A stretch of DNA of 31,755 bases from Candidatus Falkowbacteria bacterium (GCA_013203415.1 JABMQE010000106.1:1-31755), one strand, 5' to 3'. Shown: positions 4,481-31,755, counted from the first letter of the stretch. Numbers and translations are program-made. Notes: generated by a model not told the origin, from the letters alone.

Positions 4481-5587
4481 ATGAAAATTGCATTAGTCCA
4501 TGACCACTTAAATCAATTAGGAGGGGCAGAGAAGGTGCTTTTTGCTTTGAATGATATTTATAAAGAAGCGCCGGTTTTTACTTTGATTCATGATAAGGAG
4601 AGGAGTAATGGGATTTTTGAGAGGTTGCCTATCCAAACATCTTTTATCCAAAAAATGCCTTTTGGGGCTACGCATCTACGATGGTATTTAAGTTTGATGC
4701 CGACTGCTTTTGAGTCGTTTGATTTGGGGGGGTTTGATGTGGTTTTGTCTTCGACATCAGCTTTTTCTAAGGGAGTAATTGTGGGGCCAAATACTTTGCA
4801 TATTTGCTATTGCCATACGCCAACAAGATATCTTTGGCAGGATACGCACGAGTATGTTAGGGACTTAAAACAGAATTTTTTGATTAAGAAATTTTTGCCT
4901 TTGCTTTTAACTCGGCTTAGGCAATGGGATTTTGAGGCGGGGCAAAGGCCGGATGTTATGATAGCTAATTCTAGGAATGTTCAAAACAGAATAAAAAAAT
5001 ACTATCAAAGAGACAGCACGGTAATTTATCCGCCGGTTGAGATAGAGAATTTTGGGATTGCCGACGATCTTTCGGATTATTATTTAGCTGGGGGACGATT
5101 AGTTTCTTATAAAAGATTTGATTTGGTGGTAAAAGCATTTACTAAGACAGGAATAAAGCTAAAGATTTTTGGAACAGGGCCGGAAGAGGACAAATTAAGA
5201 AAGACGGCAGGGGAGAATGTTGAGTTTTTAGGGCATGTTTCGCAAGAAAAGAAAGCAGAATTATATAGCAAGTGCTTGGCTTTTATCCATCCGCAGGAAG
5301 AGGATTTTGGCATAACGCCGGTAGAGGCAATGGCTTCTGGCCGGCCTGTTATTGCTTATAACCGGGGCGGAGCTTTGGAAACTGTGGTAGAGGGAGTGAG
5401 CGGGACTTTTTTTGATGAGCAGATTTGGGAGGCATTGGCGGATTTGATTATTAGATTTGATCCTTATATATATAATCCTTTGGAGATTAGAAAAAGGGCA
5501 GAAAGGTTTGGAGTGGAGCGGTTTAAGCAAGAGATGCAGGAGTTTGTGGCTTTGAGGTGGAATGAGTTTGCGAGATGCGAATTGTAA
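4481..5587 (+). CDS. Glycosyltransferase family 4 (GT-B)
   Basis: MKIALVHDHL..GGAE, YCHTPTRYLW, EEDFGITPVEAMASGRPVIA. Confidence 0.93.
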   Translation: MKIALVHDHLNQLGGAEKVLFALNDIYKEAPVFTLIHDKERSNGIFERLPIQTSFIQKMPFGATHLRWYLSLMPTAFESFDLGGFDVVLSSTSAFSKGVIVGPNTLHICYCHTPTRYLWQDTHEYVRDLKQNFLIKKFLPLLLTRLRQWDFEAGQRPDVMIANSRNVQNRIKKYYQRDSTVIYPPVEIENFGIADDLSDYYLAGGRLVSYKRFDLVVKAFTKTGIKLKIFGTGPEEDKLRKTAGENVEFLGHVSQEKKAELYSKCLAFIHPQEEDFGITPVEAMASGRPVIAYNRGGALETVVEGVSGTFFDEQIWEALADLIIRFDPYIYNPLEIRKRAERFGVERFKQEMQEFVALRWNEFARCEL

Positions 5588-5626
5588 GCCTTAAGCCTTA
5601 GGCCGTAAGCTATAAGCCGTAAGCGT
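5585..5626 (+). repeat. Heptamer array (TAAGCNN)6, left flank of the four-helix-bundle gene
   Basis: TAAGCCT TAAGCCT TAGGCCG TAAGCTA TAAGCCG TAAGCGT. The first TAA is the upstream stop codon. Confidence 0.9.
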
Positions 5627-5676
5627 TTTTTAGATTTTTTGTAATATATAGTTAAAATTGGGAAGGAGGTGATATA

Positions 5677-6030
5677 ATGGAAAAGTTTCGTTCTCTTAAG
5701 GTGTGGCAAAAATCGCATTACTTAGTTTTGGAAGTTTATAAAGTTACCAGAGACTATCCGGATTTTGAGAAATTTGGTTTGGTGTCTCAGATGAGAAGAT
5801 CTTCTGTTTCTGTTGTGGCTAATATTGTTGAAGGTTCGAAGAAAGTTAGTATAAAGGATAGAAAACATTTTCATGTGATAGCCGATGCTTCATTAGAGGA
5901 GTTAAAATATTATTTTATTTTAAGTTATAATTTAAAGTATATTGATTCTGAGGTTGGGAAGAAACTTATGGAATGTGCAAGGGAGGTAGGTCGAATGCTT
6001 TCAGGATTAACTAAGTCTTTAAGTAAATAA
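5677..6030 (+). CDS. Four helix bundle protein (23S rRNA IVS protein / bAvd-like family)
   Basis: F.SLKVWQKSH.L..EVYK...YP..EKFGLVSQMRRSSVS...NIVEG signature, 117 aa, strong SD AAGGAGGTGA at 5663-5672. Confidence 0.9.
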   Translation: MEKFRSLKVWQKSHYLVLEVYKVTRDYPDFEKFGLVSQMRRSSVSVVANIVEGSKKVSIKDRKHFHVIADASLEELKYYFILSYNLKYIDSEVGKKLMECAREVGRMLSGLTKSLSK

Positions 6031-6043
6031 TTTGTCGTAAGGT

Positions 6044-29961: not shown

Positions 29962-30045
29962 TACGAAACTACCCGCCTCGACGAGTCAAGACTCGTCTTG
30001 GCGAGGCGGGCGAAAATTATGCGAAACTACAAAAATGCGAAAATT
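29961..30045 (+). repeat. CGAAACTA-type dispersed repeat (copy 4) with nested 39-bp hairpin (29972-30010); supplies the ATG of the next gene
   Basis: ATACGAAACTA[CCCGCCTCGACGAGTCAAGACTCGTCTTGGCGAGGCGGG]CGAAAATTATGCGAAACTACAAAAATGCGAAAATT. Confidence 0.85.
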
Positions 30046-31185
30046 GTTATAGCAGCAGGAATTTTTCCACCAGATATTGGAGGACCGGCAACTTATGTTG
30101 TTAAGCTTGGTAATGCTCTTGTTCAGCGTGGGTGTAGGATTAATATCGTTTGTTATACATCGCCACGCGAGAATGGAAAATGGAAAATGGAAAATGGAAA
30201 ATGGAATTTTTCTGTCTTTCGAGTTTTGCGGAAGGGAAATAAGATAGTTAGATATTTTAAGTATTTTTGGAAGGTTTTGAGAGTAGGGAAGGATTGTGAT
30301 GTTATTTATGCGCAAGGGCCGACTTCGGCTGGATTACCAGCTTTGTTTGCGGCCAAGCTTTTGCGAAAAAAGTTTGTTGTTAAGATTGTTGGAGATCCGG
30401 CTTGGGAGCAGGCGATTGGCAAGGGACTGACAAAGGATATGATTGATGAGTTTCAGGTGAATAAATATAATTTGAAGATTCAGTTATTAAAATGGGTAAG
30501 GAGTTTTGTTTGTCGCAAGGCAGACCGGGTGATTACTCCGAGTGAGTATTTGAAAGGGATTGTTAGGGGGTGGGGCGTTGATAAGGACAGAGTTAGGGTG
30601 GTTTATAATAGCGTAGAGAATAGGGAATTAGGAATTAGGAAACAGGAATTAGACGAGGATGTTATTTTGTCGGTTGGAAGATTGGTGAAATGGAAGGGGT
30701 TTGATGTTTTGATTGAGATAATGCCGGACTTGGTTAGGGTTAATCCAAAATTCAAATTGATAATTGTAGGAGATGGACCAGAGAAAGAGAGTTATAAGTT
30801 ATTGGTTATACGTTATAAGTTAGAGGACAAGGTCGAATTGGCTGGTAAATTAAGCAGAGAAGAGGTTAGTGATTATTTAGCAAGAGCTAAGATGTTTGTC
30901 TTGAACGCTGGTTACGAAGGTTTGTCCCATGTGATTTTGGAAGCAATGCAAATGGGGTGTCCGGTGATTACGACTAGAGTTGGCGGAAATCCAGAGGTAA
31001 TTAAAGATGGGGAGAATGGGTTGCTGGTGGGTTATAATAATAAGGAGCAGTTAAAGAGTGCGATTTTGAGGTTGTATAATAATGACGAGTTGCGTCTTGG
31101 TTTGGCAGAGCAAGCTAAGAAAGATTTAGGAAAGTTTAATTTTGAGACAATGATAAATAGTACGGAAAAAGAATTACGTAATTAA
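30019..31185 (+). CDS. Glycosyltransferase family 4
   Basis: KIVIAAGIFPPDIGGPATY, SVGRLVKWKG, YEGLSHVILEAMQMG. Start likely ATG 30019. Carries three in-frame heptamer arrays. Confidence 0.92.
   Translation: MRNYKNAKIVIAAGIFPPDIGGPATYVVKLGNALVQRGCRINIVCYTSPRENGKWKMENGKWNFSVFRVLRKGNKIVRYFKYFWKVLRVGKDCDVIYAQGPTSAGLPALFAAKLLRKKFVVKIVGDPAWEQAIGKGLTKDMIDEFQVNKYNLKIQLLKWVRSFVCRKADRVITPSEYLKGIVRGWGVDKDRVRVVYNSVENRELGIRKQELDEDVILSVGRLVKWKGFDVLIEIMPDLVRVNPKFKLIIVGDGPEKESYKLLVIRYKLEDKVELAGKLSREEVSDYLARAKMFVLNAGYEGLSHVILEAMQMGCPVITTRVGGNPEVIKDGENGLLVGYNNKEQLKSAILRLYNNDELRLGLAEQAKKDLGKFNFETMINSTEKELRN
30172..30206 (+). repeat. Perfect heptamer array (AATGGAA)5 within CDS
   Basis: Five exact units, encoding NGKWKMENGKWN. 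Confidence 0.95.
30624..30651 (+). repeat. Heptamer array GGAA(TT/AC)A x4 within CDS
   Basis: GGAATTA GGAATTA GGAAACA GGAATTA, encoding ELGIRKQEL. Confidence 0.75.
30791..30825 (+). repeat. Heptamer array GTTANNN x5 within CDS
   Basis: GTTATAA GTTATTG GTTATAC GTTATAA GTTAGAG, encoding SYKLLVIRYKLE. Confidence 0.75.
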
Positions 31186-31234
31186 TTACGTATTTAAATA
31201 CGTATTTAAATACGTATTAAAATAAGTATTTATG
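31175..31234. repeat. 12-bp-period ACGT-centred array x5 spanning the stop and next start codon
   Basis: TACGTAATTAAT TACGTATTTAAA TACGTATTTAAA TACGTATTAAAA TAAGTATTTATG. Confidence 0.85.
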
Positions 31235-31755
31235 AAAATAATGATGCTAAGCGGAGATAGGAGTTTGGTCGCTGGAAAACGCGGAGCGTTTTATTATACT
31301 TTGGAGGAGTTGAGTAAGTATTGCGAGCGGATTGATGTGCTATGTCCATTGGAACAAGAAAACAAGAAAACAAGAAAACAAGAAAACAAGTTTTTTGATA
31401 ATGTTTATTTACATCCTGGTGAAGAGAGTAAGATTAGACAGATATTTTATTTAGCGAAAAAGGGAATAGAGCTTTGGGACAAGGAAAAGCATGATATTGT
31501 TTTGATTCATGAGTATCCGCCTTTTTATAATTCTTTAGGAGCAAGATTATTGTCTAAAAAGATTAATGCGAAATTTGTAGTGGAAATTCATCATATAATT
31601 GGTTATCCAAAGCAAGCGGACTTAAAAGAGAAGTTTCATTTTTTGTTGTCTAAGATTTTTATTCCAAGAGATTGCAGAAGATTTGAGGCAGTTCGGATTG
31701 TTAATAAAAAACAAGTGCCAGAGTTTTTAAGAGGTTTGGGAGTAAGCGAGGCAAA
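31232..31755 (+). CDS. Glycosyltransferase family 4, N-terminal part (runs off the window)
   Basis: Open frame MKIMMLSGDRSLVAGKRGAFYYTLEELSKY...HEYPPFYN...VEIHHIIGYP to the window end; GT-B N-terminal character. Confidence 0.8.
   Translation, partial: MKIMMLSGDRSLVAGKRGAFYYTLEELSKYCERIDVLCPLEQENKKTRKQENKFFDNVYLHPGEESKIRQIFYLAKKGIELWDKEKHDIVLIHEYPPFYNSLGARLLSKKINAKFVVEIHHIIGYPKQADLKEKFHFLLSKIFIPRDCRRFEAVRIVNKKQVPEFLRGLGVSEA
31353..31390 (+). repeat. Perfect octamer array (AACAAGAA)4.75 within CDS
   Basis: Encodes EQENKKTRKQENK. Confidence 0.95.

Follow-up and report, generated by a model that had tools for sequence, protein, structure and literature searches.

Tandem arrays with a period of 7 or 8 nt are scattered across a polysaccharide locus of a Candidatus Falkowbacteria bacterium, and they are a habit of the whole genome, not a device for diversifying sugar-transferase enzymes. 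The locus is the stretch of 31,755 nt that was analyzed (GCA_013203415.1 JABMQE010000106.1:1-31755; hereafter, the window), which is contig C100 of a 95%-complete, 1.03-Mb metagenome-assembled genome, G000, whose named relatives are Parcubacteria/Patescibacteria. We favor, at a probability of roughly 60%, the interpretation that the window arrays are a local sample of genome-wide patches of ~25–35 nt, of the type known as short tandemly repeated repetitive (STRR) sequences or heptanucleotide long simple sequence repeats (LSSRs), which are copied as short patches and filtered by selection.

Excess of Period-7 and Period-8 Arrays

Arrays were called with Tandem Repeats Finder (TRF). With a minimum of three copies per array, 16 arrays of period 7 or 8 are present in the window, whereas 100 Markov simulations built from its own order-1 or order-3 statistics averaged 0.25–0.35, with no more than 3 in any run. 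TRF arrays are present at all 13 coordinates listed in the original prediction, 12 of them with period 7 or 8; the remaining one, at 27108–27144, is irregular with a period of 9–11 nt. Arrays at 3819, 21967, 24456, and 25173 were found in addition. Across G000, TRF called 243 arrays of period 7 and 88 of period 8, compared with 25 of period 6 and 34 of period 9, and order-1/3/5 Markov simulations of the genome gave 0–11 and 0–5 arrays of periods 7 and 8, respectively. With 87 distinct canonical heptamer units in the genome, the combination of a fixed period and a variable unit is far above chance, and the genome-wide histogram bears out the predicted enrichment of period 7 over control sequences. 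Around orthologs of one glycosyltransferase (GT) gene, 121 period-7 arrays occur in 525 kb from 80 other, mostly Patescibacteria genomes. All six loop peptides quoted in the original prediction were reproduced in the frames of called open reading frames (ORFs), and as it had noted, pyrD, pyrC, and a 3.9-kb gene are free of arrays, with no period-7/8 array called by TRF in 12080–14094 (pyrD/pyrC-like) and 17226–21104.

Placement and Host Genes

Genes of G000 were defined by simple longest-ORF calls, by which 84% of the genome is coding and 16% is noncoding. The 243 period-7 arrays comprise 148 that are intergenic (61%), 62 inside ORFs, and 33 across ORF ends, and inside genes period 7 leads (62 arrays versus 25 of period 9). 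Genes of GT family 4 (GT4), which account for 2.8% of coding bases, have 10 of the 95 internal arrays in coding sequences (CDSs) genome-wide (p = 4e-4), 7 of which are in the window. Outside the window, GT4 enrichment is not significant (3 of 85 in-CDS arrays versus 2.1% expected, p = 0.26) and GT2 genes have none. The impression that arrays concentrate in glycan genes therefore holds locally but not beyond the window; it is explained by the seven GT4 genes of the window, which is a polysaccharide locus, and the focus is mostly a window effect.

Other hosts of arrays are enolase, GluRS, an Ile/Val/Leu-type tRNA ligase, PolA, DnaE, TsaD, TGT, MurG, YchF, Mur ligases, SMC, ribosomal proteins, and a CCA-adding/poly(A) polymerase-family enzyme (PF01743). 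In ribosomal protein L15, the C-terminal tail is itself an array (G000:C66:2549-2606, 21 residues). This tail is encoded by (AACTCGTAACTCGGG)x3.9, a 7+8-nt compound unit of the same family as array 6792 and an arm of the C132 cassette described below.

Copying of Arrays between Unlinked Loci

Unit families occur in three forms: as the arms of cassettes that surround a four-helix-bundle (FHB) gene, as ~20 gene-less hairpins, and as solo patches between or inside genes. The solo arrays of the window are without a gene or partner arm of their own, and only some share arm sequence. Array 6792–6821 is identical at 30 of 30 positions to C66:2547-2576, has 28-nt exact matches at C66:2579-2606 and C101:3642-3669 (intergenic), and matches the left arm of the C132 FHB cassette at 29 of 30 positions (C132:15247-15276); flanks of these copies are unrelated at every locus. 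Irregular 28–30-nt arrays of this family are in frame in a GT4, the L15 tail (C66), and a FemAB-family gene (C54). Array 27108–27144 has an exact 33-nt copy at C119:1433-1465. Array 30790–30822 is identical at 31 of 33 positions to C87:11740-11772, which lies in the same structural place of a paralog with 35% protein identity to GT4 29998–31185, with flanks matching at 18 of 30 and 13 of 30 positions; it also resembles both arms of the C60 cassette. Because identical or near-identical irregular arrays recur at unlinked loci with unrelated flanks, array patches are copied among unlinked loci. Among the other arrays of the window, 14648–14699 has 90–96% matches at ~10 other loci, including the contig ends C64 and C15, 23036–23062 has a 24/24 match within another gene (C52:38-61), and 31353–31390 has ~15 similar arrays in other CDSs.

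Persistence of Sites and Turnover of Units

The GT4 gene at 29998–31185 has three arrays, at sites 1 to 3 (table 1). Across 84 aligned orthologs of this gene, period-7/8 arrays are nearly all at three places, equivalent to window residues 54–81, 206–221, and 262–277, and their units vary from genome to genome; a fourth place, equivalent to residues 141–147, has two arrays. Array rows at site 1 come from ~15 of the 84 orthologs, and at site 3 the same codons hold units such as AATTATC and AATTACA in orthologs. In an AlphaFold model (mean predicted local distance difference test score, pLDDT, of 93), site 1 is the loop between strands 47–54 and 72–77 and the least confident part of the model (pLDDT 67–80), site 2 is an interdomain linker coil between strands 199–201 and 221–226, and site 3 is helix 263–272. 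Of the 18 orthologs with an array at site 3, 15 have a segment of 26 aa, as do 50 of the 66 orthologs that have none, hence the array there replaces sequence and adds none. Some of the arrays are lineage-specific loop insertions, which supports that part of the original prediction. The native site 3 peptide, NLxLxIxNLxL, has a heptad-like pattern and, in AT-rich genomes, produces a weak lag-7 periodicity in the DNA; such cryptic periodicity may seed or favor arrays.

Sites persist over family-level divergence, whereas the unit changes yet stays homogenized within each array, a pattern of concerted evolution. About half of G001, a genome of the same family, was compared on the basis of 247 reciprocal-best ortholog pairs (median ortholog identity of 61%). 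In 24 of 48 classifiable cases, an in-gene array of G000 shares its site with an array in the G001 ortholog, where random placement predicts 4.1. Units at the shared sites are identical in none, and their mean distance is 2.67 versus 3.44 for random pairs (p = 0.001). Six in-gene arrays of the window have a G001 partner: a GCCCCAA array at the site of array 6792, an AATTATC array at that of 22659, an octamer array at that of 22761, a TTCACGA array at the place of 30624, a partner of 30790, and (ACAAGTT)x8.9 at the position of 31353. The G001 ortholog has no array that corresponds to 23036–23062. Since half of the in-CDS arrays are at sites that already have an array in G001, they mark old sites and not the fresh cassette footprints that had been proposed. 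None of 83 GT orthologs checked has a cassette inside the gene. At 11 candidate loci, matches were ~600 bp longer than expected because a paralogous GT lying upstream had been merged with the match; PF05635 was not matched there.

Paralogs within a genome share units. In G001, AATTATC arrays are present in three adjacent GT4 genes; two of these arrays are at site 3, and the third is immediately 5' of the conserved G-x-G motif. Two paralogs of G000 have AGTTATA arrays. This bears the signature of some exchange between array loci that accompanies concerted evolution of long-lived sites. Many in-gene patches leave protein length unchanged: among 71 arrays unique to G000 or G001, a local length difference of 0 is the most frequent (17 cases), and the rest spread widely both ways. 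Quantized insertion sizes (+7 aa for three units or +10–11 aa for a whole module) were considered and rejected, as no such peak is present.

Selective Filtering of Arrays within Genes

Within genes, only short arrays that are stop-free or stop-corrected survive, and they do so in loops, linkers, or a heptad-patterned helix. Units with a stop codon in sense orientation make up 25% of those in CDSs versus 73% of those between genes, and all 17 in-CDS arrays with a stop-containing unit are imperfect, whereas 11 of the other 50 in-CDS arrays are perfect. In array 30790–30822, the mutated units are the two in which TAA would fall in frame. No more than 5.5 units are present in 66 of the 67 arrays in CDSs, and intergenic arrays reach 14; the median is 4.1–4.7 units in every class. 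The same element is found in genes in both orientations and in differing frames, yielding unrelated peptides, which is why the array-coded peptides look like filtered, tolerated by-products and not selected diversification. The proposal of a process that diversifies GT loops is not supported by these results, given the many non-GT hosts and selection that is seen only against stops. For annotation of reduced genomes, this means that odd low-complexity peptides in enzymes of the candidate phyla radiation would be repeat passengers, neither functional motifs nor assembly errors.

Association with Four-Helix-Bundle Cassettes

Three observations tie FHB cassettes to the process: the unit families that they share with other arrays, a correlation in density, and arms that codiverge with the protein. 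G000 has 16 PF05635 FHB genes, and nearly every one is flanked by two heptamer or octamer arrays that are mutually reverse-complementary, with a unit particular to each cassette. By spacing, inverted array pairs separate into those with gaps <100 nt, which are gene-less hairpins and account for 21 of 47 close pairs, and those with gaps of 380–555 nt, which are FHB cassettes. In 25 cassettes of G000 and G001, protein identity of the FHB tracks similarity of the arm units (Mantel p = 0.0014); pairs of proteins at least 70% identical have arm units at most one base apart, and pairs ~60% identical have units two bases apart. Thus, the gene and its arms diverge together and both arms are kept homogenized, which by itself is no proof of recognition.

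One hairpin family has arms of (AGTCACT)x4 ending in AGGG and a loop with the palindrome AAGACGTCTT. Its 16 arrays include those at G000:C66:5230-5319, C67:189-281, C89:159-248, and C89:4906-4994, among others, and one pair forms the arms of the C140 PF05635 cassette.

The original prediction that arrays are orphan arms of the cassette type holds in part. The 29/30 match of array 6792 to a C132 arm, the likeness of array 30790 to the C60 arms, and the density correlation are in its favor, but an exact unit is shared with an arm or hairpin by 19% of in-CDS arrays and 49% of intergenic solo arrays, relative to a rough null of ~13%. The idea of a master copy was rejected; families with a cassette arm among their members show, by a rough count, no clear excess over what family size alone predicts.

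Array density was surveyed in 15 genomes of the order, with 33–88 kb sampled per genome and the whole of G000, and ranges from 0 to 24 period-7 arrays per 100 kb. It correlates with density of PF05635 genes (Spearman rho = 0.66, p = 0.008), which is suggestive only, because kinship was not corrected for. Of the two associations originally proposed for testing, then, enrichment in GT4 genes is not significant outside the window, whereas array density follows FHB genes. Loss of mismatch repair was rejected as the cause of differences between genomes: no match to MutS (PF00488, E ≤ 1e-10) is present in any of 41 genomes of the order (G000–G040), 35 of them at least 90% complete, yet densities vary over the full range. 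With no MutS found in any genome, its loss cannot explain the spread; this is a permissive background and no discriminator. A RAYT/REPIN model (repetitive extragenic palindromes mobilized by a Y1 transposase) was also rejected. G000 has five Y1_Tnp genes (PF01797, IS200/RAYT-like) of 205–232 aa, none of the five is flanked by heptamer arrays, and the density of Y1 transposase genes is uncorrelated with that of arrays (rho = 0.14).

Mechanism and Alternative Explanations

Under the interpretation that we favor, the engine would be short-patch, non-reciprocal copying, possibly by template switching or misaligned repair synthesis with a 7-nt offset. Copying would act within single arrays, from one hairpin arm to the other, and at times among arrays of separate loci, in a lineage in which MutS was not found. 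Selection would afterward filter the outcome, leaving the odd peptides as tolerated by-products.

Several points weigh against this interpretation. It offers no definite molecular engine and no account of the period of 7. Exact-unit sharing of in-CDS arrays with arms or hairpins is barely above the rough null, and the density correlation is uncorrected for phylogeny and based on partial samples of each genome. Genome G004 (100% complete) has 8 period-7 arrays in 55 kb (14.5 per 100 kb), and no PF05635 gene was found in it; its congener G021 has four. The cassette is therefore not strictly required, or arrays outlive it. Recurrence of position could in part reflect few permissive sites that are struck repeatedly, and the native site 3 peptide alone gives weak lag-7 periodicity. 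Because genes were called as longest ORFs, hosts beyond the ortholog set may in part be spurious.

Pure in situ slippage of the polymerase would have each array arise from local sequence by a 7-nt step favored by the replicase, with no copying between loci and no link to cassettes. We consider it unlikely, though with some claim to attention. In PMC4679880 and PMC4692102, heptanucleotides are described as the most abundant long simple sequence repeat (SSR) class of many bacteria, and contact with the polymerase is put forward as an explanation. MutS was not found in the order, the cryptic periodicity of native site 3 could seed an array, and shared sites have units more similar than those of random pairs. 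However, slippage, although it accounts for the excess of the period, does not predict identical irregular arrays of 28–33 nt at unlinked loci with unrelated flanks. It should add multiples of 21 nt in genes, whereas the length-neutral class is commonest and +7 aa was seen in 1 of 71 unique arrays. Variation in density among genomes that uniformly lack a MutS match, and its relation to PF05635, also count against slippage.

A bolder extension of the copying model, which we hold to be rather doubtful, is that FHB (Avd/S23p-like) cassettes are the autonomous form of a new selfish system. Their protein would recognize or help write arrays of ~five units, with the unit coevolving, and the hundreds of solo arrays, among them those translated in essential genes, would be patches overwritten or homogenized without change in length. 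If true, the decades-old puzzle of bacterial heptamer repeats (STRR/LSSR) would be explained.

Arrays might alternatively be functional cis-elements, that is, binding or processing sites for the FHB protein (possibly one subunit per unit of a ~five-unit array) or another factor, with in-gene copies regulating mRNA or DNA transactions. The constant module size in all classes, the long persistence of sites, the codivergence of arm units with the FHB protein, and the frequency of exact arm or hairpin units among intergenic solo arrays are in line with this. But the 87 differing units, and the occurrence of the same element within genes in both orientations and several frames, count against it, and codivergence is also expected from plain co-inheritance; we therefore judge such a role improbable.

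Contingency loci, in which gain or loss of one 7- or 8-nt unit frameshifts GTs and switches surface glycans as in neuO of Escherichia coli K1, are very improbable. The unit length is no multiple of 3, the perfect tracts at 30172 and 31353 are close to the 5' ends of adjacent genes, and the neuO heptanucleotide AAGACTC is a precedent (PMC13001214). Nevertheless, all 83 of 83 GT orthologs are open in one frame in consensus assemblies despite ~45 period-7/8 array rows inside them, the arrays are short and often imperfect, and GT enrichment is absent outside the window. The same arrays are also in enolase, GluRS, PolA, DnaE, and L15, where an OFF state would be lethal.

The reading of the original prediction, a cassette-encoded, targeted diversification of GT loops akin to diversity-generating retroelements (DGRs), is close to untenable: the cassette protein matches the bAvd family and arrays in GT loops vary between lineages, but a search of the 95%-complete genome gave no match to reverse transcriptase (PF00078), arrays are not GT-specific, their peptides vary with orientation and frame under selection seen solely against stops, and related arrays differ by whole-unit changes common to all copies and not by adenine-directed substitution.

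Coordinates and Other Features of the Window

Table 1. Arrays and associated genes, in coordinates of the window unless a contig of G000 is given
Feature	Position	Strand	Unit and copies	Context	Peptide or remark
Cassette left arm	5584..5624	+	(GTAAGCC)x5.9 (TRF)	starts at stop codon of GT4 4481-5587	19-nt exact inverted match to 6053-6071
Four-helix-bundle gene	5677..6030	+		PF05635 23S_rRNA_IVP, Pfam E=1.5e-34; 1 of 16 in genome	also matches PF22296 bAvd, E=1.5e-11 (Avd-type four-helix-bundle)
Cassette right arm	6046..6076	+	(GCTTACA)x3.7	overlaps start of GT4 6071-7258	reverse complement of left-arm unit
In-frame array	6792..6821	+	30 nt, CGAGTTA plus one 8-nt unit	in GT4 6071-7258	11-residue peptide
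Intergenic octamer array	8406..8432	.	(TCATAAAA)x3.4	between GT4 7268-8392 and DUF4012 gene	
Intergenic heptamer array	14648..14699	.	(ACAATTA/GACAATT)x7	upstream of extracytoplasmic function (ECF) sigma-factor gene	
In-frame array	22659..22680	-	sense (CAATGGT)x3.1	GT4 22241-23407	LNVQWSMV
Imperfect in-frame array	22761..22787	-	sense (CAATGAT)x3.9	GT4 22241-23407	LMINDQSSMI
Perfect in-frame array	23036..23062	-	sense (GTCAATG)x3.9	GT4 22241-23407	SMVNGQWSM
Irregular array	27108..27144	+	9-11-nt period, CACTAAT core	covers stop codon of epimerase gene 26131-27123	
Site 1 array	30172..30206	+	perfect (AATGGAA)x5	GT4 29998-31185, variable loop	NGKWKMENGKWN
Site 2 array	30624..30652	+	(GGAATTA)x4.1	GT4 29998-31185, interdomain linker	RELGIRKQELD
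Site 3 array	30790..30822	+	(AGTTATA)x4.7	GT4 29998-31185, helix 263-272	SYKLLVIRYKL
Perfect octamer array	31353..31390	+	(AACAAGAA)x4.8	ORF 31232-31753	EQENKKTRKQENK
Extra array	3819..3840	+	(AAAGGAA)x3.1	ORF 3718-4473	
Extra A-rich period-7-like array	24456..24506	+		covers stop codon of epimerase gene 23496-24470	
Extra short array	25173..25192	+	(CATAAAG)x2.9	UDP-glucose dehydrogenase gene 24606-25892	
Y1_Tnp genes	G000:C71:476-1093, C43:151-771, C50:2863-3516, C103:1490-2149, C111:2646-3344			PF01797	

Repeats of other periods are also present. A perfect 36-nt x 2.8 tandem repeat at 3519–3619, located 3' of a sugar-transferase gene, is unrelated to the heptamer arrays. A 19-nt-period repeat (TAATGCGAAACTACGAAAA) has two intergenic copies in the window (11399–11443 and 26019–26060) and belongs to a separate dispersed family with AATGCGAA units at 6 loci in the genome. 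Arrays of 12-nt period with an ACGT core (TACGTAACAAGC / TACGTAATTAAA) are at 27533–27566 and 31175–31232 of the window and at G000:C126:2010-2043; one is translated within GT4 27175–28398 as LRSMLRNKLRNK, one covers the stop/start junction of two genes, and another adjoins a PF05635 gene fragment.

The gene for a B12-binding radical SAM protein (28537–29961), located between two GT4 genes, has no syntenic counterpart at the collinear locus of G001 (C92); its best match in G001 is elsewhere on the contig, with 31% identity. On the + strand, GC skew, (G-C)/(G+C), is 0.11–0.38 throughout positions 1–31755 (G 25%, C 14%), and sense-strand skew of G000 genes ranges from -0.28 to +0.47. The skew suggests an unusually large strand asymmetry, beyond what coding bias alone explains.

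Comparison with Known Systems

The closest known kinds are cyanobacterial STRRs and heptanucleotide LSSRs. STRR heptanucleotides were reportedly described by Mazel and colleagues in 1990 from heterocystous cyanobacteria (Calothrix PCC 7601, Nostoc/Anabaena); PMC4692102 also mentions them. Like them, the arrays of G000 consist of tandem 7-nt units, several per genome, that are mostly intergenic and often in inverted pairs. STRRs were defined in heterocystous cyanobacteria, whereas the host here belongs to Patescibacteria and has a genome of 1 Mb. Its unit families are many more (87), one in four of its arrays is translated in frame, and families are shared with PF05635 cassette arms. G000 thus has the period-7 excess and the many, mainly intergenic units of STRRs and LSSRs in a host that is not cyanobacterial. 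Bacterial heptanucleotide repeats have been known since 1990, and in 2007 they were shown to dominate among long SSRs; their origin and function are still not understood.

A genome-wide excess of period 7 was reported, and a link to slippage proposed, by Mrazek, Guo & Shah 2007, as relayed in PMC4679880 and PMC4692102. The arrays of G000 resemble LSSRs in that period 7 exceeds other periods genome-wide. In the 2007 survey, according to those accounts, in-gene repeats were mostly multiples of 3, whereas here period 7 leads inside genes, and the arrays are copied between loci and often length-neutral.

Marine Beggiatoaceae, cyanobacteria, and Bacteroidetes have TAACTGA direct repeats, which are likewise heptamers, in 2–6 copies, mostly intergenic and occasionally translated (PMC4679880), and the LSVISYQ-type peptides of that system resemble QLSIINYQLSII of the window. 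That system differs in that a single unit dominates each genome and is mostly found immediately 5' of start codons; G000 has dozens of units with no preferred position. The neuO gene of E. coli K1 shares a translated 7-nt unit in the gene of a surface-glycan modifying enzyme, and its tracts have 3–53 units with 65.6% of alleles OFF (PMC13001214). In contrast to these perfect tracts, most of whose alleles are out of frame, the arrays here have 3–5 units, include none that is OFF in 83 orthologs, and are also in essential hosts.

Short dispersed repeats copied in frame into tolerant spots of protein genes recall two further systems. Rickettsia palindromic elements (RPEs), by the account of Ogata and colleagues in 2000, are said to be palindromes of 100–150 nt inserted as extra sequence, and the small dispersed repeats (SDRs) of cyanobacteria, treated by Elhai and colleagues in 2008 (cited in PMC3116915), are reportedly associated with tandem heptamers. 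G000 likewise has dispersed in-frame copies in unrelated genes, but unlike RPEs, with their added palindromic inserts, its solo arrays are ~30 nt long, direct, internally periodic, and frequently length-neutral.

Intervening sequences of 23S rRNA in Leptospira and Coxiella contain an ORF for an S23p/PF05635 protein. As in these, the cassette at 5584–6076 has a PF05635 gene between complementary arms; the cassettes here are instead flanked by protein-coding genes and have tandem heptamers as arms, as found in the window and at most of the 16 genes. Of the hallmarks of DGRs, the Avd-type protein is present, and neither the reverse transcriptase nor an adenine-differing pair of template and variable repeats was found.

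Literature searches on heptamer repeats in Patescibacteria found nothing specific. The arrays differ from the known kinds in their phylum, the large translated fraction, the persistence of sites with turnover of units, copying between loci, and the tie to PF05635, none of which was found for those kinds in the literature searched. Relative to the earlier systems, G000 offers three handles, namely sites that persist with concerted turnover of their unit, irregular copies that move between loci and are often length-neutral, and a density and arm sequence that track the FHB family, and these make the questions of why the period is 7 and what makes the arrays testable.

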